This document shows positions 11,140 to 60,740 of a DNA stretch of 64,000 bases, piece after piece; the stretch's first letter is position 1, and every line of letters starts with the position of its first letter. The notes under the pieces were generated by a model. It worked only from the letters and a program-made list of their open reading frames with translations. It was not told where the DNA came from and ran no database searches. Source of the stretch: Paraspadella gotoi. Lineage: Eukaryota; Animalia; Chaetognatha. The stretch lies in the NCBI GenBank assembly GCA_051294375.1, contig CM119266.1, positions 22,077,875 to 22,141,874 on the forward strand, written 5' to 3'. Position numbers and translations under genes: made by a program.

Positions 11140-11830
11140 GCGATAACGAATTGATGTAATAATAATTGATTGATGTAATAGTAATTGATTGATGTAATAG
11201 TAATTGATAAATGATACGACGATAACCAATTATTGATGCGACGTTAACCAAATGATTGATACGATGATAACCAAATGCTGCGATTTCTAGCTGCTGCAGA
11301 TCAGATGAGGCAATGACTGTAAAAATAAATAAAAGATAAAGATATTTTTACAATTGTTTACAATTAAAAATTGTTACAATTTTTTTATAATTGGAAGTCG
11401 TAAAAGCGTATATTTTTATTTATATTAAAATTTAGATATAGCTTCTCATTATCAAGATCTTTTAAATTGTTTTTTATAAAAGTATGCTATCATAGTATAT
11501 TAAAAATTTAGACATGGCCTCTCATCTTTAAGATCTTTGAAATTGTCATGTTTCATGTGGATTCAAATATTTTTTGTTTGAATTTCTTTCTCATTATGAT
11601 TTACTGCAAAAGTTAGAAAATAGTACTTATTATAATATGCAAATTAGTATATTGCAGCAAGTCATAATATTGAAAAAAATCATACAAAAAATATTTAGAT
11701 CCATATGAAATATGACAATTTCAAAGATCTTAAAGATGAGAGGCCATGTCTAAATTTTTAATATACTATGATAGCATACTTTGATAAAAATCAATAGTAA
11801 TTCGTAGTAGTTTTTATGTAAAAAGATAAG
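11140..11830. mobile_element. Composite repeat copy A: GATGATAACCAATTATT-type minisatellite plus ~320-bp foldback palindrome
   Basis: Minisatellite at ~11140-11275. Arm ~11471-11580 is the near-perfect reverse complement of ~11681-11790. The terminal GTAGTAGTTTTTAT motif recurs at ~33995 and ~50323. Confidence 0.7.
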
Positions 11831-13366: not shown

Positions 13367-16300
13367 ATGGTACGCTCTCTTTTCGCCAATGCGTCAAACT
13401 TGGGAACTCCGCCACCGCGGGCCCCCAACCTGGGACGCGGTCACCGCTCGGCGACGCAGCTTACGGGGGACGCTTCGAGTTCCCCTTCGTCAGGCGAGTC
13501 TCCAAATCTCAAACTGAAATATAAATTTGTATTCCTATCATCTCACCCACCAGGTCATTGCCAGTCACCATAAATTAGTCAAGTTTGTCTGTTTATCGCA
13601 GCTTTTATACAATTATTTCCTTTCAATTTTACATTATTATTTGTTTGACCTTCGGCTTTAATTTCTTCAGGCCGTCGTTGCCAAGTGATTTTGCTTGACG
13701 ACCGTAAGCTCGATTTTTTGCTGCAGCCAAAACTGACGGCGGGGGATCTCCTGGATCTCGTCACTTCACACTTCAACCTGAAAGAGAAGGAATATTTCTC
13801 TCTGGCTTACCGTGACGAGACGGGACATTATGGCTGGTTGCAGGTAGGGTTGAGGTTTACAAAGAAGACTACTTTAAAAATGCCAACGTACAACGACCTC
13901 AGATACAACTGCGATACTACTCGCTCATGTATTACATTGTGAATATTTAAATGTAAAGTCAAAGTGAAGCGGCACAGGTCCACCACTCCGGACGACCGAA
14001 GACAGATTTCATGTTATTTTATTTTCTAATTTTAGAACGACCGTCGAGTGTTGGACCACGATTTTCCGAATCGGCCTCCGGCGACTCTATATCTCTATTT
14101 CCTTGTTCGGTTCTACGTTGAGTCGATCACTCACTTGCAGCACGCCACGACCGTTGAGCTATTTTATCTGCAGGTTGTATTATTATTATTATTATTCCTC
14201 TCTGGTTTTCTGCGATTAGATATTTACACTTTTAATTATTTTTTCCAGGCCAAGTCGACCTTCAGCAAAGGACTGCTGGAATGCGAAGATGAGAAGGCTG
14301 TGCGTCTGTGCGCTCTCGGTCTACAAGTCTCGCTCGGCGATTATCCTTTCGGAGCTGCCGACCAGCATGGGTACGACGCACCCAACTCACGGGTGAGTCT
14401 CCGGACTTGGGTAGAGAGATTTAACTACATCGAGGACTAGGCGATACCCCTCTTAATCTTACGTATTTCCCCTTCCAGATGGCGCTGCTGTCGACGGCGC
14501 TCAATCGGTTGGATCTTCTTCCGCCTTCTTTAACTAACAACCAGAGCCCTAATATCAACGAGCGTCCCTCACCCGCCATGGAAAATGTCTACGCTCACAT
14601 ACTCAGGCTTTATCAGGTAAAAGTTATGGGAGAAAGAAGAAATTGCCCTGGTGCTATGAACTTGGTGAAAATATCGCCGTCCACTTTTTCCTGTACCAGG
14701 GTTTACTTGGTCAGCCACGGGGTCAGGCCATCGTCTCGTTCATGGCTATAGCGGAGTCGTTGCCCACTTACGGGGTCCACTACTACGAAGTCAGGGACAA
14801 GCACGGCACTCCATGGTGGCTCGGTCTTTCCCCACAAGGCATCGCTGTTTATCCACATCACGACAGGTAGCACAGTGACCAGCGTCCACCGTCACTTCCT
14901 TTTTCACGTCACGTTCACGTCACGTCTTGATTTTTTGTCCTCAGACGGAATCCTCGACGCATGTACCAATGGAGGCAACTCGAGAACCTTTACTTCCGGG
15001 AAAAGAAATTTTCAGTGGAGATTCACGATCAGAGAAGAAGTAATGCCCAGAATCAAGGTAGCAGATAGTTTGTCCCGTCTTGCATGTTTATAGTGTAAAA
15101 CCTCTTTATTTTAATTACGAATACATATATGTTGGAGTTTTCGTTTTTCTTTGTCATAAATTATACAATTATACAACATTATATTTCATCTTGACAATTT
15201 AGGAAGCAAAGGCGGGAGTCGCACTTTCGGCCCATCCAACGTTAACGTTCACGTTTGGTTCGCAGCCACTCCCACCTTGTGCAAGACCATTTGGTCTATG
15301 GCTATTTGTCAACATCAGTTTTATCTGGACCGTAAAACATCAAAAGTAAAGAACTTATCTTGTTAGGTTGCTGTTAAATCCAATCACTCTTAAATTCCAA
15401 ACTTATCCTTTTTCTTAATCAGTCTCAATTAAACAACGTTCGGAGTCTCAACGCAATCGCCGCAGAATTGTCACAATCTTCCCTCTCCCTAGCCTCGTCA
15501 GGCGGCTCCGGAGAGCGGAGTGGCGACGTGAGTCATGATTCCAGCGCTAATAACGAGAAATCTAACGTAGCCGAGGAACTTTTGAAGAAGGTTGTTACCC
15601 GTGAAAATGTGTACATCGAAAAAGAATTACGCGTTTTTCTATTCGTTTTCTGCCTGATCCATTTTCAGGGCGCGCTTCCCCGCTCGTGCAGCACCAACTC
15701 TCTCCCCGGATCTGTCAACATTTGTCCCGAAGAGACGGAAGCGTCCTCAGAGGCCAGACGAGACATGCACGCGGCTCTTAAGGCCAGGAAGGTCGCCCTG
15801 GAGGAATCTCTCAAAAGAAAGATGGAAGAACTCAAGAAATATTGCATCCAGGTATGAGTTTATATTAATTTTTCGAGAGTAATGCCAATTATGTGAATAA
15901 ATATCAAAAGGAAGAACTTATGGCAACGGGGAGACATGTGTGAGGCCCGGGGTGTGAGGCATCTCCCGTCAGCTGGCGCTCAGGGCTTTGGACCTGAGGT
16001 GACCACCCCATGTCACTGGCGTGTTTATGCCGATACCATCACACTTTAAACATTGTGACCTAGTGGGGATTGAACCCGGGACTCACGGTTGGTGAACGAG
16101 TACTTCGCTGTCCAAGCCAATGGGACGAGCTGAGTTTCACCTAGCTATACGGGAGGCGAATTTAGGATTCGCAAACAACTAACATTTTCTCCCATTTAAA
16201 ATTTATAAATGAAATGATGACAAGAAACTAACCTAAAAACTTCGTACGATTTCTGCTTCTCTTGTAAGTCAATTTTGATTTTCAGGAAGCCGAAATCACC

Positions 16301-19300
16301 GGTCAGATTCCAGTGGAGATTTCACAGGCTTTGGGACCCGGGGAGGAGATGCCCCCGATCCGACGTCGAGTCGGCACCGCTTATGCCATCAACGAGCGAA
16401 TCCTCAAGGACGACGACGAAGATGACGACGACAATGCCCACGCGGCTCAGGTATGATCCGTGTGAATTCATTTAACTGATCTGTGATATAACCTCATCGA
16501 TTTTTTTCATCTTTTTCAGGAAAAGGCCATTACGGAGTTGGAATTGCAATACGAGATTCAGAAACAGATCACCAACGCGGCCTTACGACTTGCGTCCGAC
16601 CCGACGGCGCGTCGAGCTGTTCGCAATCAACATAGGAACGCGTACGAAAAGGCTTGCAAAAAACTCAAGGAAATCGAACACTCTCTAAACGATCTGAAAA
16701 AGGTTAGTTCGTTAATAATAACAATTTTCTTTCTATTTCACATAAAATTAATTTTTTTTTTTTTAAACTTTTTTCTTTTCAGTCGCTCGGCAAAACATTA
16801 GCCCGAAAGGATTCTTACGACGAATTGGACGACGAGGCTGGAATAGACGCTGAAAACGAAACGTCGACACCCCCACTCCCGCCGCCGCCACCGCCTCCAC
16901 AATCGCAACCCCCGTCGGGCGTTAATTTCGACAACAACAACCAAAATATCGATGTTGTCGACTACGACGAGAGAAAATCGAGGTAATTTTTTTCCTTCTG
17001 TTAATTGATATTATGGCAACAGCCGGGTTGCCTGTGATGCCCATTGTGTTGGGGCATCTCACTGTTGGCTTTGGGGGCTTCCGACCCTCAGTGACGCCTC
17101 CAGTCACTGGCGCGGTTACCCTAGGACGGTCTCGCTTTGCCAACGCAGAGGGAAGTCGTTAGGACTGTGGATGGAACACTACGCCTGGGATGGTGTTTTC
17201 CCCCTCTGAGCCAATGGATTTGGCTGAAGGATGGTGGACGTGAGGCGGTGTAAATATACCGCCACAATATTATATTTATTTTCCCCTTTTTCACTTTTGC
17301 CAGACGTAAAAGTGGTGACAGCACTGGAGCCGAATTTAAAGCTACATTCTCTGCTGTAGAAAATCATCAATTGGGGCCTTATCAATCGGAGGTGAGATAA
17401 ATTATTATTTTTTAAATCGATCGGATATTTCTGGATTCTTTTATCTCGCAGGTGCCCTTGGGTCCGGAGCATCAGTATCCTGGCCAAATGAATTCTAGTC
17501 CTTCACTTTCTTCGGCCAACAACAATGCTTCTTATTCCACGCAAAATCAAGGTAAATTTATTGTACGTAGTTGGATGGCGACAGTGTTGAGAACTTCAGA
17601 TGGTTGTTTAAAAAAAATATTCTCGGAATCTCGGGGCGGTCTCTTGGTAATAGAGAAAATTGTTGGACTCATTTCAGGTTTGGTGAAGCAATGTTCCGCC
17701 CCGGCTCTGAGTTCCAACGCTCTCGGCGGAAGAAAAGCGCCGCCTCCTCTGCTGCAGCCATTCCCCGAAGACGAATCCGAAGAAGCGAGCGAAAAGGCGA
17801 TGCCTCAAGGTCCTTCATCTTTCCAATTGTTTCTTTGTCAACGTAATCAGATTCGTTTTCAACCATACTTACCTTACCTCATCCCCTTCCAGAAAGTCTA
17901 AATCTTTCTTTGGACACGGTGGATGTCATCGATCTCTCACTCAATTCGTCGTCGACCAATCACAAACCGGGTCACCCTTCGCCCTCAAAGCTTGTTACGT
18001 CGCAGCCATATCAACAACAACAACAACAACCGGTTCACCCACCTTCGTCGCACAAACTCGCTCCCGCTTCCAACAATGAGATGGTCGCGCCTTTTTCTTC
18101 TACGCACGTGACGTTGCGGCAATCCAGCAACCATGAGATATCCGATACCGTCAGGTTCGCCATTGAAAATTATTAATTGGGGATGACAAACGTTACAGTT
18201 CATTATAAATGGGACTTCTTTCGTTCGCGATAGAGCGCTACTCGTTGATCCGCCGACACCGTCTTCATTGATGCCGTTGACGCCGCCCGCGATGTCCACG
18301 GGAATCCACCATCGCTTCCCTACTTCGGTCATGCATCAGAGCCTTACCGGCGCCGGGGTCGGCGGCGGCGCAACTTCCGCGCCGCTGCAGCAGCTCCTGT
18401 ACGGCGCCGCAGTCGGTCAGTACGACTGTGGCAGCCGCACCCGCGCCAGTCTGGCGCAGGCCGCCGACGGAAGCCTTGATGAAACCATGGCGCGACAAAT
18501 CGAAATGCTCTCCGTGGACGACAGTTCTTCCAGCGCCTCTTCTGGTCAAAGAGACGACGTCGCCTCGCTGGTTTCCTCATCTTCCGACGGTACATTTATT
18601 TATCAGTGGCGTCCTCAAAATTCCGCAATTCGACCACGTTTTTGAACCGGCCATCTTTTATTCCCAAGTTCCAGATGGAGGTAATCACATGGCGCCCCTC
18701 TCGTCGACAGCCCCAAATTCCTCTCATGATCCCCCGACTCCGCAAGTTGCTGTGACCATCACGAGAGGGGCGTGTCTACCTCCGGCCGCCTCAGCCGTTA
18801 CGTTGCAGCCGACCATTGCCGGCCCAGGGGGTCACCAGGGGAGCAACGTCGGCATACCGGTGCTCCATAGTCGGGTGCCTCAACAAGGGGTAAACGTCTC
18901 TTTTACTCGTTTTACTTCATCAGAGAATTTTCATTATACTTTTTATTTGATAGGCCGCATTTAGCCACGGCGAGACCACCTTGGATAGATTTCACAGACA
19001 AGCGACCTCAGGATCTGCTCAGTTTTACTCTCAACCCGCTGTTCGTTCGCAACCTCCTCGCAGGTAAATTTTTCGCGTTTTAAATAATCGAAAATAGATG
19101 AGCTTTTTCTATCAAATGATAAAAAAAAATTTTCAGTGCCACTATCGAACTTCCCGTGGAGCACGTTCCACACACGCGCACTTCGCCACGTCCTGCGTCT
19201 TCTCATCACAGTGGGGGTGGCGTGGCTATCGCGGTTTCGATTCAATCTCAGCATCAGTTAAATCAAGTTCCACCGCACCAACTGCAACAGCTGCAGCAGC

Positions 19301-22300
19301 AGTACATGCAACATCAATATCAGCAGCAACTGCAAGCCGGGGATCGAAGGAGCTACTCCTCGAACCATTCTTCGTCCAGCGAACGATCCGCCAACAACAA
19401 CGCCGCGGCGGCAATAGCTAACCCAGCGTTCTTGGCTCCACCCGGAAACGTGACCCCACTCAGCGCCAGTAGGCAGTATAGAAGGTAATTTAGATCATTT
19501 TTTTAAATAATTGATTACAAAGGTAGTACAAAGGTTGCGCATGTTTTCATCCGCGCATCATGTAAAATGCTTGGCAAATGTTTAGCAAATTTTTCATAAT
19601 GCGGTGATAAAGACTGCCAATTTAAAAATAGTCGAACATTTTTTTCTAAATAAAAAGTTTTTCTCCCTAAATAAAAGAAGTGTAATTTTTCAGAGTTATC
19701 TCTTCGGAGGCGGCTGAGAGCGTAGCGGAAAGACTTGCTCGTCTCTCATCATCGATCCAGGAATTACAAAAGGACGTCACTGACGCTCAAAAGGTGAGTC
19801 ATATCAATTCAAGAGTCTCAGGGCTAGATCTAATTGCATATTTAGTTACTGTGCTATAACTATTCCGTCATTTCGTTTTATTTCTTGTCGATTGTCGTTA
19901 AAAATCGTTCGTTCTGTGCTAATGCATGATTGAAGTAAAAATATGAACTTACGTAAGAGCTCGTGTTGCAAAGAGTTCGTAGCGGTTGCACCCTTCTTGA
20001 CGGTTGTGGCTTTTCTTTGTTATTTTCCCGATTTGCAACAATGGAAATTAATCGGTGAAATAAATATAGAAGAAGACGAGAAAGCCAAGTAAGAGGCAAG
20101 ACATCATTTCTATCTTTTTATTTTTGATTGTTAGTATTTTCTCAGAGAAAAAATGCACAACTTGATCGTTAGAAACCTATTCCGGTCGCCATTATTGTTT
20201 CCTTTAGACAAGGTTGCCCAAAAAGTCAGGTCAGTGATTTAATATGAAAACTAAGAAGCTTCGAATTTGAGTTTTGTATTTTTTAATATCAATGCTGGCG
20301 CAAGCCAGGATTAAAATCCCAGAGACGGCCGAATACCCATTCGATTTACAAATTGGCTCTTTACTCTGCGCCATGATCTCCATATTCGCCATTCCTATGA
20401 TGAATACCAATTACCGTTTCCTGAGATTGGTCGGCGTGGGGATGTTTATCTTGCGGCAGATCGTCCAAGACGCCACCACGGGTCCTTTTATCGAACTCTA
20501 TCGGAATCATCTTCGTAAATTTTCGATGGCCTCTCACCATCACGATTTAAGCAGTTTGGACGTCATGGAAGTATTTGTTGAGGGGATCGCCCTATTAATT
20601 ATCTTGATCATTGTGCAATCGAGAGATGGAGCGTACGAGAAGGTTCACGAGTGGGGAAGGGAAGAAAGGCCCTAATACATACAGAAGAATACATTTAGAA
20701 GACAAAATATGTACCAACTAATATATTTTGTAATATTCGCTATAACAGGATGCGCGTCGTTCGTTTACAATGACTCTTGCTGATTTTCACTGGCGGTTTT
20801 TCATTATGGGGATTATACAGTTTTTTCTTTGGGCCGAATGTACGACGATTTACGGGAAGGCCCTCGATATGTTCAGTCTTGTTTCTACGGAAAATCGGAA
20901 AGCTTTAGTATCTCCTTTGTTTTTCGTCGTTTGTCATACTTGGTAAAGAAATTCATTTTAATCAAATGCAAGACGAAAAGAATTGTGTTCTACGTTTGCT
21001 CCGCAGGCAATTGTTGGACCCTGAACTTACCATTTTAGCTTTGGCTTTCTACGTGGGAACGAAAAATATACCCAAGTTGAAATTCTGGCTTTACGTGCTC
21101 CTGTTTCTAAATTTCCTCGCTGTCACTTTAACTTTGACACATTTACAAATCATGTTCAATAAAAAATAATTAAAAATATTATTACAAAAATTATTTTTCT
21201 TTCTCCTCAAGACGGATTTTTCCTTCTATGTTAAGAAAACCTTTATCTTTGATTCTTTGCGTTCTTTAATCACCGCTAGGTACGATTACTGACATCCGGC
21301 TTTGCGATTTCCCCCTCGCGGCCTCAAACGCCTCGCGGAACCGACGGGGGTTCAGGCTTCAGTGTACCGCTTTCGTTGCCGCCGGGTCACGATCGCCCCG
21401 TCGTGAACCCTGCGATCAGTCCCCGTGGTCCGCAGAGAGGCGTGGTGGGCTACGCCACCGTTCAGGTACGAATGCGAAAGAAAAAGTATAATTTTTAGAT
21501 TTTTTTTTCGAGCTTCATCCTTCTATTTTCCATGTAGAGTCTTGGAACGCCCCATTCCTCGTCCACTGGACAGGCCGGCGGAGAAAATTTTCAGCCGTTC
21601 AAGGAGACCTCGAAGCCCTTCGAGATGGCAGATGTCTATAAGTACAGGTACAATAAACACTCCAATAAATATATTTTATTCCTTCGTTCAATGGTGATTT
21701 TGTTGACATCGTAATAATAAAATTCGAACGCTCTCTTGCTTTTTCATTTCTGCTGCCCTTCGCCTCTGAATATTTTACTCTAATCGCACGGATGTGATTT
21801 TGTTTCGTTTTTTACTTATCGCCCTTCGTTTAGTTTTGGCTGTCAAGACGGAAACATAAGGTTGGTCTTTACTATCCCAACCCATCATTTTCCACTAATT
21901 TAGACCGCACACTTTTTAACGAATTTGCTGTGTCTTCCTGTTGTCATGGCTTTTACGACTAAAAAAGAACTGTTCTTTTTAAGATGCTTCTCCCTCATGT
22001 CATGTTTATATTTATATATATATATATTATATATATTATATTATATATATTTATATACAAAATTTTTAAACGATATATAATAATTAGTTTTTAAAAATAT
22101 AGGACCCCTATTCCCTAAATAGAAAAATAACCCATTTGGAGTACAAAAGATCAGTTTTGTATCAGGTTCTACCGTCGCAATTTTATAACGGACCTTGCTG
22201 TTTTGTTTTGCGGCCATAGCTTTCAATCCGAAGCGATCCTGACAACCCCATATTTAGCGTAGAAAAAGAATGCAGTTAACCAGTCTCGTCCCACCGTGCA

Positions 22301-24390
22301 TTTACTAATTGGGTTTACAAAAATGTCATGTCATTACATCATCCTTTAAAACCAGCTCGAGATTTCGCCCGGGTCCAACGTCTCCGTCCGTGGCGGCGAT
22401 TGGAGCGGGAGGCGGATCGTCGGCCCCAAGAACTACCGCCAATCATCGAGGCGCGTCGGCGCCACCGGAGCGCAAGAATCCTCAAACACAAGCGCCGCCT
22501 CCTGATCGAAAAGCCCACGTCGGAGTGCCACTGACGGCTCCCGGTCTATCAGGCAGCGCCGACGCTACCGGTGCAACAACTACCATCAGGGTGGGCGGTA
22601 GCAGCGGCAACAACCCAACTGCGTGAGTCTTGCACCGTCGAAACATTCGGAATAAAACCGATTCTCATTTTATAATTTCTTCCCTAGTTATGCGTTCTCT
22701 CACGCGGCGCCGACTCATTACGACTCGACGACCATGTCCACGGCGCCCATTCGACGACTTCGTGATCCTAGCGCCGGAACGCCAACTCTAAGCGGGGCAG
22801 CTAATGTGAGAAGTGGTCCGCAATCATCGGGTGAGACGTTACGTATTTATTGATTATCACGATTTTCTTATTTACTTCACATTAATTTAATAAGATTTCA
22901 TTTAGACGTATAAATAAATTAATAAAACAAAACAGGTGTCGTAAACGGAGGGTCGAATCACAGAAGAGCCGGTACCAAAGGATCACAACAAGTAATAATA
23001 GAGTAGTATTGAATCTGGCGGTGTTCTTAGTAAATCTTACCCTGCGGACGATTAATGCTTCTATTATTATTACTCCGTTTCAGGCGAATCTGGCCCGACT
23101 GACTTCGGCTCCCGTCGTTTCTGCTCAGTCGAATCCTAACGTCGATGTCGGTCCTTCCAGACCAACCACCCAAGGTAAAGCCTTTTTTTAAAACAAATTA
23201 AAAATAAAATATTCAGCGAGACCGCTTGGGTGCAATTTTAGACTTTTATCGAGTAAATCAGTCGTTTGCATTAGCGACCGGATAAATTAAACTTGTCCCT
23301 CCATTGTATGTTTTTGCAGATGATACGTGGGTATAATCGTGACACTTTCCTGGTATATCAGTTCCATATTCACAAATTGTAATTAATCGTTTTAGTTCCG
23401 TTATTAAATCGTTTTGTCTTCCTCTCTCCCGCCAATAAATTAAGAGCGCACTTAAATATGTCACGACCACTGGTCGCGGGTGAAGGTCTATGACGTACTT
23501 TTTCCTATCCTTTTCACGTTAGCAAATCTATAACAAATTTTTTTTCCGGTTGAGGATCCTTTAATGATACTTTCCAGCAGGGACGGTGAGTTAACGATTC
23601 CTGCCGACTTTCTAATCCATTTTCCTCCTTTGTGATTTCGCTACAAACATCGGTTGACGGAATCATTAAGCTATAGTTTCTTGTTGTTCATAGGAATCGG
23701 TTATTATCGTTTATCCATTAAGCTCTCGTCTTTTAATAGCGCACCTTCTTGGACACCCTTCCCTCTGTTTTAGTCGCCTACCCTACCCCAAACGCTCCCT
23801 TCAACGGCGTCGCCCCTTCGTCTCGACCTCAACCGTCAAGCGCCAACGAAACCCAACGTAGCGGCATCCCCAAACGTAATCCGAACCTTCCTCCCAACGA
23901 ACAAGGGCTATTTCCGCAAGGGGCAGTTTTGCCCAGGTTCATTTCAAATTCGGTTCTTTTCTCTTCAAAATATTTCATTGTTAATTTCTCCCTCTATCAC
24001 TCGTACTCTAGGTCGCCGGCCATGATGCAACTGGGAACCCCGGCGTCTTTGCCCAATGGGATTTCGTCGTCAACGCCCCCAGCGCCGCCCGCGTCAAACT
24101 CGTCCCTGGATTCCTTTGCCGCTGCCGCTTCTTCCGGTCATCACGGGTAAAACGTGAAATATTGATTGAAATGTGATATTCAATTTTTAGAACAATCGTT
24201 CATAGTTTTCTTTTTGTCCTGTAATTTTAGAGGCGTCCCTTGTTCGAACATGGCCCCCGTGATGACGACGACCTTCTCCGACGAGATGATCGCCTGGTAC
24301 GCGGACCGCGAGAACCAAGGGGTCGTTGTCGATGACGAGTCAGGCCGTTCCACGCGAGACGAAGCCAATAAGCAAGCCACACTGGTGTAG
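13367..24390 (+). CDS. FRMD4: FERM domain-containing protein 4 (FRMD4A/FRMD4B family; FERM plus cytohesin-binding CUPID coiled coil), about 30 exons
   Basis: Exons translate to GRRCQVILLDDRKLDFLLQPKL..VTSHFNLKEKEYF (13671-13843), DRRVLDHDFP..VRFYVESI (14036-14173), RGQAIVSFMAIAESLPTYGVHYYEVRDKHGTPWWLGLS (14700-14865), QWRQLENLYFREKKFSVEIHD, IWSMAICQHQFYLDRK and LKKYCIQ|EAEITG..GEEMPPIRRRVGTAY. These closely match FRMD4A/B as I recall them. C-terminal exons carry KPFEMADVYKYS (~21615-21648) and FSDEMIAWY and end in ATLV*. Boundaries of the middle low-complexity exons were not all verified. Confidence 0.92.
15922..16176 (-). mobile_element. Pol III (tRNA-box) SINE-like element carrying a twister ribozyme; FRMD4 intron, antisense to host
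   Basis: On the minus strand: 5' hairpin GCGAAT-CCTAA-ATTCGC, A-box-like TGGCTTGGACAGCG, B box GGGTTCAATCCC, twister core, then a 3' hairpin ending GTTGCC. Degraded flanking repeat AACTTAT/AACTAAC. Confidence 0.8.
15979..16044 (-). ncRNA. Twister ribozyme, type-P5 permutation (core)
   Basis: RNA: GUGU GA UGG UAUCGGCA UAA ACAC GCC A GUGAC-AUGGGGUG-GUCAC CUCAGG UCCAAAGC CCUGAG. P2 GUGU/ACAC, P3 GUGAC/GUCAC, P4 CUCAGG/CCUGAG, pseudoknot UGG/CCA, and GC of GCC with GC of AAGC. Predicted U^A cut between 16027 and 16026. P1 and P5 are weak. Confidence 0.8.
17015..17266 (-). mobile_element. 252-bp SINE-like twister element; FRMD4 intron, antisense to host
   Basis: Flanked by a perfect 7-bp direct repeat ATATTAT (17008-17014 / 17267-17273). 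5' hairpin GGCGGT..ACCGCC, A box TGGCTCAGAGG, degenerate B box GTGTTCCATCC. Same length as 29061-29312, with roughly 14 substitutions by eye. Confidence 0.88.
17064..17144 (-). ncRNA. Twister ribozyme, type-P5 permutation
   Basis: RNA: GUUGGC AAA GCGA GA CCG UCCUAGGG UAA CCGC GCC AGUGAC-UGGAGGC-GUCACU GAGGG UCGGAAGC CCCC AAA GCCAAC. P5 GUUGGC/GCCAAC, P2 GCG/CGC, P1 UCC/GGG, P3 6 bp, P4 GGG/CCC, pseudoknot CCG/CGG. Predicted cut between 17118 and 17117. Confidence 0.85.
20292..21169 (+). CDS. Nested 3-exon gene encoding a ~235-aa multi-pass membrane protein of unknown family
   Basis: Exons 20292-20642, 20749-20942 and 21007-21169 join in frame through GT-AG introns (phase 0, then phase 2). 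Hydrophobic stretches: IGSLLCAMISIFAIPMM, LVGVGMFIL, VFVEGIALLIILIIV, FFIMGIIQFFLW, LVSPLFFVVC, LTILALAFYV, FWLYVLLFLNFLAVTLTL. The start codon is uncertain. Confidence 0.6.
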
Positions 24391-26103
24391 TTAGCAAATT
24401 TACAGTTATTAGTTATTTTAAAATTATCGATTTGCGCAATTTTCACCGATAATGATATTATTACCACTTTTGTAATTTGGCTCTCTCGCTGTCTCTCACT
24501 CACGCATAGATCGGTTCGGGCGCACAATCCTTTCCAGTATGATTTTAACTCCCTTGCGGAGGCACCCCTGCCCTCTTATGCCCTTCGTCTTATAATTCTC
24601 CCTTCTTTAACCCCCGGAAACGATCGCCCGTGTTTCGAACAACTTTTCCACCTCTTTACTAGGCGCGATCGATCCACCTTTCACTGTAAATTAAGCCTTT
24701 TCGTGAGTCATGAGGCTTTTGAACTCTTTTTCACCGCTGTGATCATTTTTACACGCACCCTCTCCCCCATACTTTTTCGACGATTTTTTTTCACTCGTAT
24801 AATTTGTACAGAAAACTTAAGCAATCATCCTTTGGTGGAAGAGAGGCTATTTTGTCTCTTTGGGCTCGACACGTCACGTCGGGGAAGGGCTTTGCTTCTT
24901 TTTTCTATTTTTAGCCCCGTTGTCAATAGACTCTTTTCGCCTTTCGGTCGCCAACTTTTTTTCCTCTCACTTACTATTATAACTTGCGTCGATTTTTTTT
25001 CCAGTTTAACTCGTTTTTTTCGAAACAACCCCCCATGTAATTTATCTTGCTTTTGTCAAGGGCAAAGCACTTGTAAAGCTTTTTGCTGGCATAATTTGGT
25101 TTAATAATTCATTGGTCGCGTCATGGTTCTTGTCTTTATTTTGGAGATTTGTGAATCTATCTTGGCTGCTTTTAATAATCTTGGACTTTATGTTTGACGT
25201 TACAATAAATAATACGTTTTAATTTTATATAGACGCGCGATTTTTTTAGCCTTCCCCCACTTTTCCTATGAAAATTTGCAAAATTACTTGTTTTACACTA
25301 TCTTATATTTTTATATTTTATAAATGTTTTACTATTTGATCTATATTATTTAATTATATATATTACTTTTTTTTTAAATTGTTTGCTTATTATATCTAAT
25401 AACTCATTTTATAGAGGGAGCATCTATACAACACAAGGTTAGACTACAATCTGTCCTAATTTGCTAATAGATATCACACATCATTCCTGTTAGAAAGTCA
25501 TTGATGATTATCTATATTATTAGTACGTCGAGATTGAGCTCCACCGTTTTTGATTATTGTCGGTAGCGTTGCACCCATAGTTTTCCTAGTAGGTAAAAGT
25601 AGAGGTTATAGTCAAGGTATTTATATGATTATCAGTGGTTCTATTTGATCACTTTTATAACGTTTTTTGACACTAGAAAACCTACGTTAAATTTTGTATT
25701 GGAAGTCGGTGTTGGTTTCGTATCAGTTTTAACCTACTCTTTCTCAAGATAAAATTTTCAATCGTTGATTTTTTTTTTCTGCGTCTAATATTGTTTTTTT
25801 TCGACGTCTGTTGTAATTCATTTGTTTCGGTCGTAACTATTACATACAAATACAAATGATCGAACCAGTGAATTGCTGTTGCTTACGGCCTTATCCTTCT
25901 TTTAGTCACTGATTTCTGAGATCTATTTTTAGTTATTAGTTAGAAAATCAGCCTTAGTTTGGATAATACAAATGTCTGTAATTAAAAAAACACGGATGGA
26001 ATACAAACACGAGAGCAAAAGGTAAAACTGGATTGAAATATCATACTAATAATTTAATAAACATAACATTGCGCCATGCCGCGCCAACAATTATTTTTTT
26101 TTT

Positions 26104-29100
26104 TTACAATTCCGAGACTTGTTTGGAGGCGGCATCCCGTCGTGGACCACCGATTCGTCCTGGTGCGCCCCGCATCGGACTCGGCCGACCCGGTTGGCGT
26201 TCCCTAAAATCGGCGATCGGAAATGCGGCGCCGGATTGGCGTGAAGACAGGCTGGAAGATGGACTGGCGAAAGATGGAATGAGGTCGGGCGGATGGCTCG
26301 AGCGGTTCACGGGATCTGTAGCAAGAACGGGATCAGTTTTTGGATTAGCACGTAAAAGTGGGAATGGTTTGCATTTATAACTTAGCGCGAGATTGCGGAG
26401 GCAAGACTTACTGGAATAGGGTTGAGACACCGAGTAGTTGGTCGATTCGTTCGATGTCGGGATTTTTGCCGGATGAACGCCAAGCGACGTCATTCTGTTG
26501 ACGAAAAGTTAGGTTCGTTTTGATTAATAAGTACTGCCACGCGTTATAATTTATATATAAATATATTATATATAACCGGATCTACTTATACCGAGGACCA
26601 CCTACTTCGATAGTTGCCCGTTCCCGGCTTCGAACGAGCGACTTTCCTCGTCCCGAGACTCCACGGCACGGCGAAAGGACGCCGGTACACGGATGGCGCC
26701 CAGAGTAAAATCGCGTTGCAACTGCGGCATTTCATTCATGGCGAGGATGGAACGTTCCTCTCGGCGTCGCCGACGGCGATGGCACGTGACTAAATTATAT
26801 TTTGGGGTATGGGTGGCATTGGCAGTGATAATGAAAAGAAAAATTTGTGTTCTTACCGGCGACGACAATTATGACGACGACGCCGAGGAGTCCGCCCGCA
26901 GCGCCGCCGATGTACCCGAGATTCTCCTCCAACTTTTTAGCGATGACCGAAGGAACTCTGTCGCAGTTGGTTTCGTCCGAGCCGTCGGTGCAGTCCCGTC
27001 TAAAGAGAGGATTGAAGTTAAAACAAATTTAATAACTGAAAAAGCATTAAGTATAAATGTCGAGAAATGTCGAGAAACCAGATGCTTTGCTTTAGATATT
27101 TTATATCAGTAATTTTTTTAACATCAGTTATATCTGAAATACAGAAGGCCTTATAACTAACTTTTTAAAATTTAAAATTTCAAGACGGTACTGGAAGTAA
27201 AATCTAAATGTGAAAATTGTTTCACTTGTTATCGCAGACGAAAGCGAGATCGACGCATTCGTCGTTGGCATAGCATCGGAAGTAACGCGTCTCGCACCAC
27301 GTGCGTCCGTTGCCGCAGTGAGCTTCGTCGCTGCCGTCAACGCAGTCCTTGCGCCCGTCGCACACGGCCTCCGCCCCTAAAGATGTTATAAAACATTGTT
27401 AAAAATTATAAATCCTATTAAAACATGGCGTTTAATTTATTAAAGTCTAAACATTACAAAATTTCTCGCGAAAACAAGAGAAGAAAATATATATTGTCCA
27501 AACAAATCGACTAACGTGTTTATGATTCCGTTGCAACGTAAAGTTAATTAAATTAAGTCCATTACAACTTATTAGTCTTTGAAACTAACCCAAGCAAAGG
27601 GATCCATTGTTGCATCGAAAGGGTTTGTCCTCTGAGCACCCGTCGGAACAGTTCCACTCGTCCGACGCGTCGGAGCAATCGTTGTCGCCGTCGCATCGCT
27701 TAGCTGTAAATATGGAATGATTGAAAGCACAGTCATATTTTTTTTGACCAATGTTGATCGATCGGTTAAATTCAGTATCTTAGCTTTTACTCAGTTTTAG
27801 CAATTCCATTTGCACTCCCTCGTGGGCACTGGCAATCATCATCCTGATTTATAATTGTTAAATATTACTAGCCTTACCCTTTGCTACAAGATTTTGGTTG
27901 GAGCACTTGAAGGCATCTTCCTTTTCGAGTCGCGCGGGCCTTCCCTCTTCACAGGTCTCTCTTCGGAGCGAGATCAAGCTGTCCCCACAGCAACTCCAAG
28001 ATGTGAAGCGAATCTGCGCATTCGGATAATTAAAGATTTAATATTTTTTTACAAAAATTAATGTTTTAGGGTCGAGACTCATACGCATATGCAGAGAGAA
28101 CGTCTTCTATATTAAAATTTCCGAGACGAAAAAATGTACCAAATATTTACATAGATTTAAAAAGATATGATACTAATAACTACTTTACTCATTACTTATT
28201 ATAGACTTGGTATGTCGGAGAAACCCTGGCCATTGGCCAAGCCTGCATAGTGCATAGTGCATACTAGTTCGGAGAGAAGCGAAAGACGAGAGGCGTCGGC
28301 AGAAGGGAAAAGGCTAAAGTCGGGCGATCGAGCGGAAACGGGGCGAGTTTATTACCGATTAAAGCCTCGACGCCGTCAGGAATTAGTCGTTAAATCGCGC
28401 GAGAAAAAAAGGACGACGACGACGAGGACGCCGTCGAAGGAAACTAACGGAAACGGCGCTTCCGGCGCCGCGCCAAATTCTCGCCCCATTTCTTCTCCTT
28501 TTGTTCGAAATTTAAAAAGGGGGAAGAAAAAGAGATAAAAAAAATGGGGGGGGGAGAGAAAGAGCGGGAAAACTGTCGGGGTCTCACACAGACTACGGAA
28601 TTTCCAATTACTGCTTTTAATTTTTTTTCTCGTCTTGTTTTTTTTTTCCTGTCGTTTGGCTTCTTACGCAATTAGAGGAAGACGCGGAGTTTTTAACGGC
28701 GAGAGAAAATATAGGAAGCTTTTCGACGAAACAAAAGCCAAAACAAAATAAAACAAACAATCGAGTTTTTGAGTTTTTGCTTATGACCTGCCGAGGAACG
28801 ACGTAGAGTTCGCCGCTTCGACCGCAAATGCCAGTGACGCAATGTTGAAAGTCTCCTCTGTCGCAGAAAGATCGAGGGGGAGCTGAACGTCCGTGGGGGG
28901 GGGGGGGAAATAAAGGCTTAGAAACTAAACCTAAGTCTGGGAACACGCTAAAGGACGTAAAAACGGATCGTTTAGTTTTTAGTAGCCGATAAGAGTCGTG
29001 ACTGAATAGTTCAGTTGTCTATCTGTGTCTTTTAGTCATTATTAAAATAAAGGCTCTTATCCCAACAGCCGGGTTGCCTGTGATGCCCGTTGGGATGGGG

Positions 29101-30365
29101 CATCTCACTGTTGACTTTGGGAGCTTCCGACCCTCAGTGACGCCTCTAGTCACTGGCGCGGTTACCCTAGGACGGTCTCACTTTGCCAACGCAGAGGGAA
29201 GTCGTTAGGACTGTGGATGGAACACTACACTTGGGATGGTGTGTTCCCCCTCTGAGCCAATGGATTTGGCTGAAGGCTGGTGGACGTGAGGCGGTGTGAA
29301 TATACCGCCACACTCTTTTCATTAATTGGATTAATTATTAAAATAAAGAGATTAATTTTATGTGAATTGACTGGACCTGTCTTTGCAGAAGTCGAGGATG
29401 CGGTGGTGCGGCGAAACTCCAAACGAGTAGACAACGAATCCCTAAAAACAAACATTCCATTGGCTTCTTTTTTTTTTATTTACTATCATTATCGAGTTTT
29501 AACGCAGTTTGCAGCATGAGAGAATGAAAGTAACTCGGACTATATTTATAGAAGTTCTACATATTCCTTAATTTTAAATCTTTTGTTTATAACATTATTT
29601 TTTATTTAATTTTTAAAAAAATTAAATGTGCCATCAAAGAAATTCGAAAATCATTTATATACCTCGTAAAGTCTACGACGCCAGCGCTGGTTCCTAACGT
29701 TGACTCCATTAGCTCGTCTAAAAGTCGAAAAATATGAAACATTTTCACGTGATAATGATATTAATTGAAAAAAAAAGTTAATATATTCAAATTTATATTC
29801 ATAATTTTTTTTTTTCGGCGTCATATTTTTGACGAGAGGATCTTGTTTCCCGCGCACCTAATCTTTATTTTACGAGTCGAGTAAAACCCAAAAGAATTTG
29901 CATTTTTACCAGATTTTTTTGTGGCGGACGTTGTTGTGGTAGTCGTGGTCGTTGTGGTCGTCGTGGTCGTTGTAGCGGTGGTGGGTCGGGCGACGACGGC
30001 GAGAACGTTTCTCTGGTCGATCGACGGCTCAGAGGTCACGTGACAAACATATTCGCCAGCGTCGGAGAAGGTCACGTGACGAATTTGAAAGATCTCCCAA
30101 CTCTGCTCCCCGAAGACGTTGGCGTACGGGTGGAAGCTGAGAAGGAAGAGAGGAAGACAACTGTGAGACAGTACGAGCAATATCTTCATCGTGCTTATGA
30201 CCAATGACCACATAGTTTACATATAACGTTTCCGTTTAACAAATAATTAAGCGTGAGGCAATTGAAGAGCCCGAAGCGTAACTGATTAAAAGTGGAAACG
30301 AGGAAGCGAAAGTGAAACGCGATTCCAAGGATTCAATGAAGACCTGATACAAAATAGCTTTAGTT

Positions 30366-30431
<66 letters not shown>

Positions 30432-33400
30432 CAATTTACGTAACCAAAGGAATCAAGTTATTTTTTTTCCTTTTCAATGCCTCTTGATAAAGAGTTATGC
30501 CAGCCGCCCCTTAATTAATTAATCCAAAGGCGTCCATTTTTTTTCCACGCCATACTCGCCAACAATTTTTATCCCTCCCCTCACTACTAATTTATTCTAC
30601 CTGGGAAACAAATTATCAAATAAATTTTTTTCGTGTAAAAACTTTATTTATTAATGCGGGTGGTTTTGCAACCTATCAACTATCAAGTTTTAATCAGCTT
30701 TTCCCTTAAGAAAAAGTTAAGTTTTTTTACCATTTTGCAAATAATTAGCTCATAAATTTTAGTACTCACGGGCACTCTCATTTTTATTGACAATATCTTA
30801 ATCTATTTTTTATTTTTTTATTTTCTAATTTACAACGTCACAAAAACTGCGTCATTCAAATATTTTTTCCCACGCAAAATATTTTGTTAAAAAAAAAACA
30901 ATTTTCGTTGAAAAAATCCTTTTTCCTCAATTATTTGATGATCTCAAATATTTTTAAAAATAATTTTTAGTTCATTTAGTTTTGTTTTTTACATACAATT
31001 TTAATGGCAGATTTTAATTTCTCGTCAAAAGTAAGTAGGTTAAAAATTAAAAAAAACTATATTTAATATACAAAATTTTAATTTTCAGCTTAAAATATAG
31101 GTTTTTATAATTTTGGTCTAACTGGTTTTACAGGGCGCCACACCCGCAGCGGTGTCACCTCGTGGCGACAGCGAGACAGCTTGTTCATGTAGTCCAGAGC
31201 TTTGGATCTGGCAGTAGGCCCATGCCTACAGGCGGGTTACCCGGTCCATCCCACTTTCTACATGACAACCTCAGGGCTCGAACCAAGGACGCACTTTGGG
31301 ATGGTGCATTAGTCCACTGAGCCATTGAGGCACTGTGAAAGAAACAGCTTTAATCCATCTGTGGTGATAGGACCACCAGAATATTTCTTTTTATCAAATT
31401 TTTATTACGAATCCAAATCTGCATTAACATTAGGGTTAGTACTTTATATAAATATAGCCTAATGCATAAATTGCAAAAATTATAATACATTTTTTTAATA
31501 CATTAATGTTCGTTAGCACAACGTTGTTCATTCCTCACTTTTAGAATTTTAATTTAAGTTAAATTTAAGCTTTTTACTACGCTTTATTCAGTACGTATAT
31601 GAGTTTTATCAAAGGAACTTTCTACTTACATGAATCTTTCGTTGTCAAAGTCTCCGAGTTTTTGTCCTCTGAAGAAAATCCAGTCCTCCCCTGAAGGAGG
31701 AAGAAAGGCCGGAGGAGTTTGTGGGTCGAGGGAAGAGATGGAGTGAGTGAAAAAAAGATGGGGGGGGGGAGAAAAGAGATATTTTTAATAATTCGTCACG
31801 GAAGACGAGAAAAGACGAGTTCAGGTGGTTCGAATCACCTTGGTAAAGACGACGTTCACAACGACGAGGATCGTAAATATACGAAATCGTATGAGAATTT
31901 TTATATTTTTTGCTTCTATTTTTGATTTGAATTAATAGTATGGGTATTTTTTTCGTTTAATTTTTCGAAGTTAAATAAAAGTGGAATACGTAAGAAAAAG
32001 GGGACAGAAGTGAGAGGCCGACGTGACAGCTAGAGATAGAGGTACAAAGAGATATATATTGATAAGACGAGCTCCATGAGTCCATTGTAATATCCTCATA
32101 CAGATGAAATGTGCTTTTTGAGAGAGAGAGAGAAAAAAAAAAGTAGTACGCTATGTGTCAACGTTGCTGCAATCGAACTGGCAAAGGTCGATACATAATT
32201 TTGAAAGTGAGAAATAGCGAGCGAAAGAGCGAAAAAAAAAAAGAGATTCGGCCGCGAGTGGATTCGCGAGCGAAAGGAGAGGAAGTGATAAAAACGGGAC
32301 GGAAATAAACGCGCGTCGGCGAAAGACGTCGTAAATTAGTTTCCTTCACCGGAAGCGAAATTATGGAAGGGAAAAATATGCAGAAGTCGACGTCACGGTC
32401 GTATCCGCTTTCGTGGAGCGACGATAACGAGTTTATAATCTTTATTCCCTTCAAAGAAGCGAAAATAAATGAAAAAAAAAAGTTGAATCATTTCGCCGTG
32501 GATGGGGGGGGGGAGGGGGAGGGTCGTCGTCCTCGTCGTCGTAATCGTTGTGAATTCAACATGTATCATCATCGGTATCAGTAGATGTTGTTTTGTTTTT
32601 TCTTCTCCTCTACGAATTTCGTCTAACGTCTATCGTCTATCGGTATCGATTTTTGTTTGTTTGTGCGTGCGCGAGTTTTATGTGTGACCTTTGTTCTGAT
32701 ATTGAATTTTACGTGTTTCTTAATTTTTTTTTTTGGTTTAAGCAATTTATAAAATTCGATTTCCTTCGTTAGTTTTTTTTTCATTTTACATTATTTCAGG
32801 GTTGTTTTTTTTATCCGATACTTGGCGATCACTATCTTTCGTCTCGCATAGAAGGTCACGCGAAAAGACGACATCAAAGGAGATAACTCAACACTCAACT
32901 TCGCCAAATCAAAGTCTTCCTTTCCTTCGTCGTTGTCGTCGTCGTCGTCGTCGTAACGCTGATCTCCCCGCCTTACCACTCCGTCCACGCCCACCCGATC
33001 CTCACCTTTTTTCCAAATGACGTATTCCTCGCGGAGATTCTCGACTTGACAAGTGAACTCGACCGTCTCGCCCTCCGTCGCCGTCAGGGTCACGGGGTCG
33101 TTGACGAAGCAGGGTCCGCCCTCCCCGGGGCACTGGTCCCCGTCTCCGAGTGGCAGAGCTGCGAGGAATGAGGAAAGAGGGGCACAATAGTTATAAGATA
33201 ATCAATGATAATTGCCTCTTGATATCGTATTTGTAATGGTATGATACGTATATGAATGAAAGACAGTGTAGCGACTTCTCTCGACATAGTCACCGAGGAT
33301 GAGAAGGTGAAATAATTGTTGCAGTTGAAGGGAAAGAAAAGAATTACATGGTTCTCTGTATGAGAGTTAGTAAATGAGAGGACCGCGAGAGAGTCCTGAG

Positions 33401-33708
33401 TTGAAGCGTGGCGGATCTTGTTATTAATGAAAAAATCTGAATGATTGATGCGATAACCAATTATTGATGTAATAGTAATTGATTATTGATGCAATAATAA
33501 TAAATTAATAATGCGATGATAACCAATTAGTGATGCGATGATAACCAATTATTGATGCAATGATAACCAATTATTGATGAGATGATAACCAATTTTTGAT
33601 GCGATGATAACCAATTATTAAAGCGATGATAACCATTAACCAATTATTGATGTGATGATAGTCATTCATTGACGCGATGAGTCATTCATTATTCAAAACA
33701 AATGCGTG

Positions 33709-33775
<67 letters not shown>

Positions 33776-35280: not shown

Positions 35281-35724
35281 CGCGTAGGAAGCTGCGAAAC
35301 ACTAAGACGCCGACGCGAATAGAGATGGCGCGGCGTCGGGAGAACCTTGGATCAATGATACGAATGGGGTTAGAAAAAAGGGATCAATGGGATCAAAGTC
35401 AAAGCATCCAATGATTCAAAAGAATAACCTCGGTAATTTTTCATTGAATTTATTGGTTTCATGATCAAAGATCAAAGATTTATTTTTAATTACGTTTCAA
35501 AATCTCCCTTAAAAACCCGAAAAACTCTTCAGTAATTATTTCCGTAATTTAAAAATTCTGTGAATTAAAAACATAATAATCATTATTTTTAACGTGTTGA
35601 AAAAAAAGGCTCATTGCATTTTTTTTAAGTCCAGCGTAAATCTTCAAAATCTCGGAACTCTTTAAGTAATTTTTTGCGCCTTCCAAACGTCATTCTTGCC
35701 TTTTTTTCCCTTTTTAAATATGTA

Positions 35725-35900
35725 GTCGGGCATTGCCTAGGTTCACCCCGCCTATAAGCATGACACCTTCAGTCCTGACCCGGTGGCTCATTGAGTAAAG
35801 CCATCAGCTCATGACCACTAGGTACCCTTGGGGGCGTGGCAACCCCTCAAGCCTGGTTCCAAGCCCAGGACCCGTTCCATAGCTACTAAAGGGGGTTATA
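35725..35900 (+). mobile_element. Probable internally deleted remnant of the twister-SINE family
   Basis: A-box-like GTGGCTCATTGAGTAAAGC, followed by a P3-like hairpin TTGGGGG..CCCTCAA and a twister P4/L4 CCTGG-TTCCAAGC-CCAGG (35852-35869). B box, P2 and the UAA/GCC motifs were not found. Confidence 0.45.
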
Positions 35901-48419: not shown

Positions 48420-48495
48420 CCATGATAAGTCATTCATTGATGCGATGATAGTCATTCATTCATCGTAAATAAAACAAACAAATGCGTGTATGAGT

Positions 48496-48536
<41 letters not shown>

Positions 48537-48692
48537 GGACAGTTTTCCCGCCAACGAAACGCAATCAGAATTTTTAGGAGAAAAAATCCACGAAAATCTC
48601 GGATGTAAATTTGGAATTTTGTATTGAGAAAAAAGCGCGGAATAAATGAGCGATGCAGATAAATAAGTTTTTTAGAAGGAAAAAAAAAAAAA

Positions 48693-48756
<64 letters not shown>

Positions 48757-52612: not shown

Positions 52613-60740
<8,128 letters not shown>

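Follow-up and report, generated by a model that had tools for sequence, protein, structure and literature searches.

Retrozymes are at present divided into LTR elements of plants, which carry type III hammerhead ribozymes, and non-LTR elements of animals, which carry type I hammerheads (PMC7761336, PMC7229834, bioRxiv 10.64898/2026.07.22.740005), and reviews describe the metazoan retrozymes as having no LTRs, PBS or PPT (PMC7761336; bioRxiv 10.64898/2026.07.22.740005). The plant elements, as described in the available parts of Cervera et al. 2016, have ribozyme-bearing LTRs of 300-400 bp, target site duplications (TSDs) that are 4 bp long, as well as solo LTRs (PMC4918200); the design in which a ribozyme in an LTR serves the formation of a circle is so far described in plants only, with a ribozyme different from the one considered here. 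In Helenus TRIMs of animals the LTR contains A and B boxes, the TSDs measure 4 bp and the PBSs are of the Gypsy type; their LTRs can far outnumber the internal parts, for example 1114 versus 151 in Ajax-1_LiLo (PMC10886601); some of the published Helenus LTRs in the parts of that source available also end in TA. As to twister ribozymes, the sole role shown for a eukaryotic one in the literature examined is the 5' processing of an RTE LINE (PMC8501958, available parts).

The window, i.e. the whole 64-kb stretch of Paraspadella gotoi DNA that was analysed, harbours four minus-strand inserts (E1-E4), each of about 255 bases, and a fifth LTR-like insert (E5):

15919..16176, minus strand: E1, family 1, solo-LTR-like, in an intron of an FRMD4-like gene and antisense to it, TSD AGTT
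17012..17266, minus strand: E2, family 2, solo-LTR-like (TGTGGCG...TGCCATA), in an intron of the FRMD4-like gene, antisense, TSD ATAT
29058..29312, minus strand: E3, family 2, apparently intronic and in sense orientation within an Ig-domain gene of the minus strand, TSD AGAG
31122..31380, minus strand: E4, family 3, inserted within a different, AT-rich repeat at an ATAT site (31381-31384)
35721..35946, plus strand: E5, LTR-like insert TGTAG...TCCATA, a broken look-alike, TSD AATA

At least three multi-copy families are present that combine sharp TG...TA/CA ends, 4-bp TSDs, A/B-box motifs and a covarying twister fold, and inserts of the E1-E4 type are probably solo LTRs of small non-coding LTR retrotransposons with an A/B-box promoter motif and a type-P5 twister fold. 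The families are 51-58% identical to each other among the window copies, E3 is 95% identical to E2, and the GC content of the copies is 54-57%. An earlier, sequence-only reading had described four minus-strand elements with hairpin, A box, B box, twister module and second hairpin in this order, all of which were found, and its element boundaries have been corrected to those given above. It had overlooked the closing P5 helix and the fifth insert. The latter has an A-box-like motif at +64 and, of a twister-like fold, retains nothing but the 3' half (P3, P4 and L4 at 35827-35869); B box, GA half and UAA half are absent from it, and its homology to E1-E4 is not significant (z 1.5-1.9). No further copies were found in the window by a covariance model or by an nhmmer profile of the four copies, both of which missed E5.

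The ends of these elements are sharply defined, as contigs of all four sequencing runs stop matching at the same positions and continue into unrelated AT-rich flanks (contig-end counts in run X1 of, for example, 59+53, 84, 72+80 and 60; agreement 0.41-0.49). Loose contig ends lie at 15918/15919 and at 16172 plus CACA for E1, the first four bases of which have diverged from the family end TGTG, at 17011/17012 and 17266 for E2, and at 31122 for E4, where empty copies of the host repeat join 31114 to 31381. The family ends read TGTGG...CCATA, families 1 and 2 thus terminating in TA rather than CA, and family 3 finishes in ...CTTCA (21 and 12 contigs), its terminus being ...CCTCTTCA; in E4 the final 8 nt and the second TSD are missing, presumably through a deletion of about 40 bp. 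The termini form imperfect inverted repeats (TGTGGC / TATGGC), and the elements end at CCATA or CTTCA with no A-rich or simple-repeat tail. An exact 4-bp TSD flanks all three assessable copies among E1-E4, as well as E5, so that the 7-bp duplications claimed earlier shrink to 4 bp, the ATA being part of the element. The consensus of the flanks resembles ATAT/GTAT/CTAT, and 8 of 8 rows for the 5' ends have C at +5, a pattern that disfavours a duplication of 6-7 bp starting with TA; a 6-bp duplication with CA ends fits E2 and E5 and fails for E1, for E3 (5/6) and for the flank consensus. The target looks like palindromic ATAT. According to the available parts of PMC3276498, fixed-length TSDs and palindromic targets typify LTR and TIR elements, variable TSDs result from non-LTR insertion, and Drosophila Gypsy families use a 4-bp ATAT/TATA core target, with C-ATAT-G in the Idefix clade as against G-ATAT-C here. 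Sharp ends, a fixed 4-bp TSD, an ATAT-like target, an A box well inside the element and the missing tail are the marks of an integrase, and the reading as solo LTRs is therefore considered the best: they would stem from a Pol III-driven miniature LTR retrotransposon of the Helenus/TRIMp3 type with a twister, which would make it an LTR retrozyme of an animal.

The twister folds are located as follows:

15972..16054, minus strand: E1 twister, P5 type with P3; GA at 16040, predicted cut 16027/16026, GCC at 16020, L4 at 15992-15985
17064..17144, minus strand: E2 twister; P5 of 6 bp, GA at 17131, predicted cut 17118/17117, P3 of 7 bp, L4 at 17084-17077
29110..29190, minus strand: E3 twister; predicted cut 29164/29163
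31185..31265, minus strand: E4 twister; P5 of 8 bp, GA at 31250, predicted cut 31239/31238, P3 of 6+1 bp, P4 of 5 bp

GA, UAA, GCC and UNNNAAGC, which the sequence-only reading had recognised as the conserved twister nucleotides, occur in all four copies, and the four positions that it had named are indeed the U^A of UAA, i.e. the predicted cut. The closing P5 helix measures 6 bp in E2 and E3 and 8 bp in E4, the T1 pseudoknot consists of three Watson-Crick pairs in each of the four copies, and T2 is invariant. In alignment A1, 47 of 51 cells pair (92%) as compared with 29-51% in slid controls, figures that pertain to four related sequences from which the structure was itself derived; both sides change in 6 of 13 pairs, including two of the three in T1 (again among four related copies), in agreement with the covarying helices and pseudoknot proposed before, and these helices are kept between families that are only 51-58% identical. 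P2 and P4 are paired in 87% and 88% of the A1 cells, respectively, with two double changes each, A-C mismatches in E2/E3 (in E2 at the end of P2 and at the base of P4) and a bulge in E4, whose P2 comprises 3 bp. P1 is minimal, with 2 bp in E2 and E3, 1 bp in E1 (2 with the family majority letter) and none that is clear in E4; twister cleavage without P1 is described as inefficient (PMC8501958, available parts). In E1, P1, the base of P3 and P5 have decayed and the same parts are paired in most family contigs; the 6-bp P4 ascribed to this copy is peculiar to it, the letters found in most family contigs lengthening P3 to 7 bp. In minimum-energy folds P3, P4 and P5 are partially recovered, pseudoknots being beyond such folds. 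No hammerhead core was found in the elements, the twister fold occupying that place.

A strict descriptor requiring P2, P3, P4 and T1, composed after the copies had been seen, found 4 matches in the window versus a mean of 0.006 and a maximum of 1 in 500 shuffles; a loose sequence descriptor was not significant (4 versus a mean of 0.9 and a maximum of 5 in 200 shuffles). E1 aligns to Rfam Twister-P5 consensus positions 1-58 of 58 with 20.5 bits (cut-off 37.6), half of E2 matches twister-P1 with 15.2 bits (cut-off 67.2), E4 gave no match to the Rfam twister models, and a scan of the whole window yielded none at gathering level. The Rfam comparison by which the sequence-only reading was to be judged thus did not confirm it, every score being below the gathering cut-off, partly because the extra P3 helix is counted as an insertion in the P5 model; P3-keeping P5 twisters that score under the cut-offs would represent a blind spot of Rfam. 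With the type-P5 twister (Rfam RF02684) the elements share the order P2'-GA-T1'-P1-UAA-P2-GC-P4-L4, the ends at P5 and both pseudoknots, and they differ in the retained 7-bp P3, the minimal P1 and the sub-cut-off scores. Within what sequence alone can tell, both the twister-P5 assignment and the link with retrozymes stand. Schistosoma Perere-3 (RTE) has T-variant twisters, which thus also occur in an animal retroelement and resemble those described here in P3/P4/L4 sequence and reduced P1; they are of type P1 and form the 5' end of a LINE that is autonomous, where the cut sets the element end, whereas the ribozyme here is permuted and mid-element (Liu et al. 2021, PMC8501958, available parts). 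In metagenomes, the exact family-2 core had 0 matches and a sequence-only pattern matched at least 119 loci (about 120 matches listed), none of which combined P2 of at least 3, P3 of at least 4 and P4 of at least 3; by this helix test the looser-pattern loci among the matches listed are chance, and no relative in other species was found.

The putative Pol III promoter motifs precede the twister:

16067..16119, minus strand: E1 boxes; A-box-like TGGCT at +58, B box GTTCAATCC at 16075
17169..17213, minus strand: E2 boxes; A box TGGCTCAGAGG at 17213, non-canonical B box GTTCCATCC at 17177
31275..31324, minus strand: E4 boxes; A box TGGCTCAGTGG, B box GTTCGAGCC

The A box begins 54-58 nt inside elements of the E1-E4 type. 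The B box of E1 and both boxes of E4 are good, and E5 has no B box; of the earlier claim that each element carries both boxes, the motifs and their order stand, and the B box of E2/E3 departs from the consensus. This non-canonical B box belongs to the most abundant family, and what alignment A2 pairs with the B box of E1 and E4 is a degenerate stretch. ARAGORN detected no tRNA in the elements, and no T4 run lies inside the element. The notion that the lack of a T-run implies a ribozyme was discarded, given that fish Helenus LTRs in the available parts of PMC10886601 have neither a T-run nor, by eye, a ribozyme.

The closest animal counterpart is Helenus (TRIMp3; Kojima 2024, PMC10886601), which shares A/B-box motifs in an LTR-like unit (with the reservation made above on the B box of E2/E3), TG...CA/TA ends, a 4-bp TSD in animals, a non-coding nature and LTRs of up to 323 bp that span the length observed here; the present elements differ in having a twister and about 150 nt after the B box, and in being known as solo units only. 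The word 'twister' is absent from PMC10886601, 'ribozyme' is confined there to the title of a reference, and inspection by eye of the animal Helenus LTRs within the available part of its supplement revealed no L4 motif of a twister together with helices. Two Synergus wasp LTRs in that material, Helenus-2_SyJa and -2_SyUm, contain an A box, a B box and then, as read by eye with no fold or scan, a type III hammerhead motif (7-, 4- and 6-bp helices, 12-nt complementary loops) that goes unremarked in the available parts of the article. These LTRs resemble the present elements in their TGTGG start, length of about 275 nt, A and B box, lack of a T-run and subsequent ribozyme motif, and differ in the ribozyme (hammerhead type III versus twister). 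Their internal parts carry PBS and PPT, and they offer a precedent, by eye, for the solo-LTR reading. Plant LTR retrozymes, in the available parts of PMC4918200, are likewise non-coding elements whose LTR holds a ribozyme, with a 4-bp TSD and solo LTRs, and Gypsy help and a circular intermediate are proposed there as they are here; they differ in their type III hammerhead, in that A/B boxes go unmentioned, and in that circles were shown there, against sequence only here.

Several features speak against solo LTRs of a two-LTR element, namely the solo state of all five window copies with neither PBS nor PPT in sight, the TA ends of families 1 and 2, a P1 of 2 bp at best that is unclear in family 3, the Rfam scores below cut-off, the non-canonical B box and the G-ATAT-C flank that departs from the Idefix pattern. 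It is conceivable, and in our view unlikely, that the 255-bp unit is instead a whole element devoid of an internal PBS/PPT part and inserted by a DDE enzyme, which might be a Gypsy integrase supplied with LTR-only cDNA of tandem units or else a transposase similar to Ginger/Sola that works on the short inverted ends. All five copies in the window are solo, none having a two-LTR arrangement and no PBS or PPT being seen in the window, the ends are imperfectly inverted, and a fixed TSD with a palindromic target suits TIR as well as LTR elements (PMC3276498, available parts); but a DNA transposon needs neither a promoter nor a ribozyme fold kept across families so diverged, PBS and PPT, both external to the LTR, are required for LTR-type reverse transcription (PMC10886601), and the window is free of tandem copies. 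The only hint of a two-LTR copy is that one contig per run, of roughly single-copy depth, links the 3' end of an E1-type unit with the 5' end of another, an arrangement that two neighbouring insertions would produce as well.

A non-autonomous Penelope/Naiad derivative, i.e. a non-LTR retrozyme with a twister in place of the hammerhead, whose monomers from tandem arrays would be inserted by a GIY-YIG/RT protein, appears rather improbable. Animal retrozymes are indeed Penelope-linked units of 150-450 bp (PMC7229834), their monomers can be common (bioRxiv 10.64898/2026.07.22.740005), and in schistosome Sm-alpha a hammerhead accompanies a Pol III promoter (PMC6765202); yet non-LTR retrozymes are tandem, below 50% in GC and have TSDs longer than 4 bp (PMC7761336, PMC7229834), whereas the copies in the window are dispersed, GC-richer than that and flanked by an exact 4-bp TSD, with a cut site that lies apart from the TG...CA/TA ends and a twister rather than a type I hammerhead. 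The sequence-only reading had favoured a twister-based retrozyme/SINE family with mid-element self-cutting of the Pol III transcript; taken as a tRNA-derived SINE that is mobilised by a LINE, this is in our view very improbable. In a tRNA-derived SINE the A box lies about 10-20 nt from the 5' end, so that one starting at +54 to +58 is too deep for the first hairpin to be transcribed. The A/B-box motifs, a size of about 250 bp, very many dispersed copies and a structured 3' end would suit such an element, as would the resemblance of the P3-bearing twister to the RTE-associated twisters of Schistosoma (Table 1 in the available parts of PMC8501958); the LTR-like sharp ends, the absence of an A-rich or repeat tail and the fixed 4-bp palindromic TSD, as opposed to the variable TSDs of non-LTR insertion (PMC3276498, available parts), argue against it, and a mid-element cut would split its own template.

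Under the solo-LTR reading, a full element would consist of LTR, PBS, a short internal part, PPT and LTR. Transcription by Pol III would begin some 35-45 nt inside the 5' LTR and, there being no T4 run inside, would continue, and the twister fold is predicted to cut the RNA within each of the two LTRs and thereby release one unit-length RNA, which a host ligase would close into a circle. A tRNA-primed Gypsy-type RT could then copy round the circle and so rebuild the LTRs, and insertion of the DNA, with its 4-bp duplication, would fall to a Gypsy integrase. LTR-LTR recombination or short cDNAs may give rise to solo LTRs, as has been suggested for the retrozymes of plants (PMC4918200, available parts), and the solo copies of the window would be dead ends. 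Whether animals more generally have Pol III-driven LTR retrozymes with an interchangeable ribozyme slot (twister here, hammerhead in wasp Helenus), in which the ribozyme replaces terminator and R repeat and the Gypsy machinery therefore copies an RNA circle, seems to us an evenly balanced question. No paper on a twister-bearing Pol III LTR design was found among the open-access papers searched. If this reading is true, no LTR element with a twister would precede the present ones, which would be at odds with the rule, as stated, that retrozymes of animals have no LTRs; a twister inside a Pol III LTR would join TRIMp3 and retrozyme, two separately described kinds, and would assign the P5 permutation a part in the making of circles. 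The reading predicts abundant circular RNA.

The proposed intronic location of the elements is supported for E1 and E2 by a contig of run X9, which is RNA by guess only, that splices out 15849-16282 and 16981-17301 (joints 15848-16283 and 16980-17302, respectively); for E3 and E4 it is suggested by exon translation only. The FERM exon of the FRMD4-like gene has its best protein match in a hemichordate (83%), followed by fish and amphioxus (78-79%), a protein search with the CUPID exon gave no match, and the exon at 32884-33141 near E3/E4 has a sub-threshold Ig match. Active copies of E3 and E4 could cut host pre-mRNA because both appear sense in introns. The E4 stretch 31185-31283 is identical to a 99-nt contig of depth 872 in run X9, contig depth being read neither as copy number nor as expression.

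E1-E4, the four minus-strand inserts (E1, 15919-16176, family 1; E2, 17012-17266, and E3, 29058-29312, family 2; E4, 31122-31380, family 3), carry what their sequence predicts to be a type-P5 twister fold. Inspection of the minus strand recovered in 4/4 inserts the type-P5 order of conserved twister parts described in the sequence-only reading, namely GA-NNN, a P1 region of 6-8 nt, UAA, P2, GCC, P3, P4 and UNNNAAGC. The T1 pseudoknot comprises three Watson-Crick pairs in all four copies (UGG/CCA in E1/E4, CCG/CGG in E2/E3), and a P5 closing helix absent from that reading is 6 bp long in E2/E3 and reaches 8 bp in E4. Cleavage at U^A is predicted to fall at 17118/17117 in E2 and at 31239/31238 in E4. 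When the four inserts are aligned, pairing is retained in 47/51 cells, as compared to 29-51% in a control of the same alignment with slid partners, and 6/13 pairs are changed on both sides, which speaks for the covarying structure proposed earlier, as support rather than as a significance test, because the four rows are related and the structure was derived from them. A loose descriptor yielded 4 matches, which is not above chance, 200 shuffles giving 0.9 on average, and a helix-requiring descriptor, fitted after the fact, yielded 4 versus 0.006 in 500 shuffles; all three helices together occurred in 0/120 of the listed metagenome matches to a sequence-only pattern.

Comparison with Rfam models, also proposed from the sequence alone, speaks against the fold: no twister match was obtained in the whole-window scan or, for E4, in a narrow scan, and the narrow scan placed Twister-P5 end to end over E1 at 20.5 bits (cut-off 37.6), treating P3 as an insertion, and twister-P1 over half of E2 at 15.2 bits, likewise below cut-off. 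As further points against it, P1 is minimal in the inserts and indistinct in E4, a passage of PMC8501958 describing twister cleavage without P1 as inefficient, and A-C mismatches are present in P2 and P4 of E2/E3. E1 is a decayed member of its family: it departs at six positions from the letters of most family contigs, and the majority letters form pairs in P1, in P5 and at the base of P3.

The ends of these elements were delineated by comparing the window with contigs of four of the nine public sequencing runs that contain its DNA. In one of them, X1, 15,273 contig records over 15500-17600 point to very many loci, and summed contig depth over E1 and E2 exceeds that of the flanks by three to four orders of magnitude, depth being no copy number. 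End positions were drawn from the best 24 of 1580 and the best 18 of 184 rows; among these best rows, dozens of contigs per run cease matching at identical places and then enter unrelated AT-rich DNA, and the family ends are therefore taken as fixed, with stop points in these rows giving TGTGGCG...TGCCATA for families 1 and 2 and an end of ...CCTCTTCA for family 3. It follows from these ends that the target-site duplications (TSDs) are exactly 4 bp, AGTT in E1, ATAT in E2 and AGAG in E3, instead of the 7 bp counted before, in which ATA is the element's own. In the best rows for 5' ends, the flanks have an ATAT-like consensus, with C at +5 in 8/8 rows. E4, located at an ATAT site within a different repeat, is missing its final 8 bases and the second TSD. 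This host repeat (31043-31114 and 31381-31423) is abundant and AT-rich, and copies of it without the insert run uninterrupted through the site of insertion.

The sequence-only reading is confirmed in part as an observation, and its classification of the inserts as SINEs is not supported: the A box begins 54-58 nt inside the element, the inserts are without a tail, their TSD is fixed in length and palindromic, and a cut at ~+150 would split a SINE's sole template. According to sections of PMC3276498, a fixed-length TSD and a palindromic target mark LTR and TIR elements, a variable TSD marks non-LTR elements, and ATAT/TATA 4-bp cores mark Drosophila Gypsy families. The best reading, and in our judgement a fairly probable one, is that the inserts derive from a miniature Pol III retrotransposon as solo LTRs that bear a twister. 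Helenus elements belong to the miniature LTR retrotransposons and have A and B boxes in the LTR, the animal ones having 4-bp TSDs and likely using Gypsy enzymes (PMC10886601). Plant retrozymes, as outlined in portions of PMC4918200, possess a ribozyme in each LTR, so that a unit RNA is cut out without an R repeat and then circularised, and leave solo LTRs flanked by 4-bp TSDs. The elements of the window would join these two designs, with a twister as the ribozyme; all steps of such a mechanism past the sequence anatomy are ones that we infer. The chief weakness of this reading is that neither the window copies nor the contigs of the four runs showed an internal part bearing a PBS and a PPT. 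In each of these 4 runs a single contig passes from an E1-type 3' end into an E1-type 5' end (16172 to 15916) at about single-copy depth, and this family-1 head-to-tail joint may stem from one element with two LTRs or from two insertions close to each other. A Pol III start would be expected about 35-45 nt within the element; in family 2, the most abundant, the use of Pol III is less certain because its B box is non-canonical.

A comparable arrangement with another ribozyme may exist in wasps. In the supplement of PMC10886601, the parts that hold the animal entries, judging by file order (1 and 5-9 of 11), were inspected by eye and all parts were searched with six motifs; no twister was seen in this material. 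By eye, the LTRs of Helenus-2_SyJa and Helenus-2_SyUm in these supplement parts have a type III hammerhead motif downstream of the B box, with 12-nt complementary loops (part 9), and PBS and PPT are present in their internal parts. The text of PMC10886601 is silent on this motif, and these wasp LTRs with a putative hammerhead would form a precedent unremarked in print. A passage of the 2020 review PMC7761336 cites unpublished insect elements carrying type III hammerheads, so its authors may already be aware of the hammerhead version. In the openly accessible papers searched, no report of a twister in an LTR or Pol III repeat was found; an unrecognised annotation of these elements may exist in subscription journals, Repbase, Dfam or the Roth 2014 twister lists. 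Animal retrozymes are stated to be without LTRs in the relevant passages of PMC7229834, PMC7761336 and bioRxiv 10.64898/2026.07.22.740005.

Further features of the window.
7610-8164, plus strand: exon with two C2H2 zinc-finger-like motifs, under Pfam cut-offs
~13.6-19.7 kb, plus strand: FRMD4-like gene with FERM and CUPID domains
26100-34160, minus strand: multi-exon gene that apparently hosts E3/E4 and includes Ig-like exons, Cys-rich LDL-A-looking repeats and a stretch rich in Thr
35721-35946, plus strand: E5, a fifth LTR-like insert with ends TGTAG...TCCATA, TSD AATA and an A-box-like motif

E5 contains only half of a twister-like fold (P3/P4/L4), its homology to E1-E4 is not significant, and models built from E1-E4 did not recover it in a window scan; it may be a partly deleted member of a fourth family. 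One exon of the FRMD4-like gene has an 83% match to a hemichordate protein and 78-79% to fish and amphioxus proteins. E1 and E2 lie antisense in introns of this gene, and both are spliced out in one contig of X9, a putative RNA run. E3 and E4 appear to sit in sense orientation within introns of the minus-strand Ig-domain gene and, if the twister is active, would meet host pre-mRNA. X9 contigs matching 15952-16147 and 31192-31275, 1292 and 3622 nt long at depths of 216 and 160, hold diverged family-1 and family-3 copies, which possibly lie inside host transcripts. In one long X9 contig, C replaces U at the predicted cut site (U^A in UAA). Elsewhere, a ~4 kb tandem duplication with 91% identity and many simple repeats occupies 52613-60666, and short AT-rich dispersed repeats, some inverted and with 67-83% identity, are found at 9495-11824, 31433-31589, 33422-34059 and 48422-50386.
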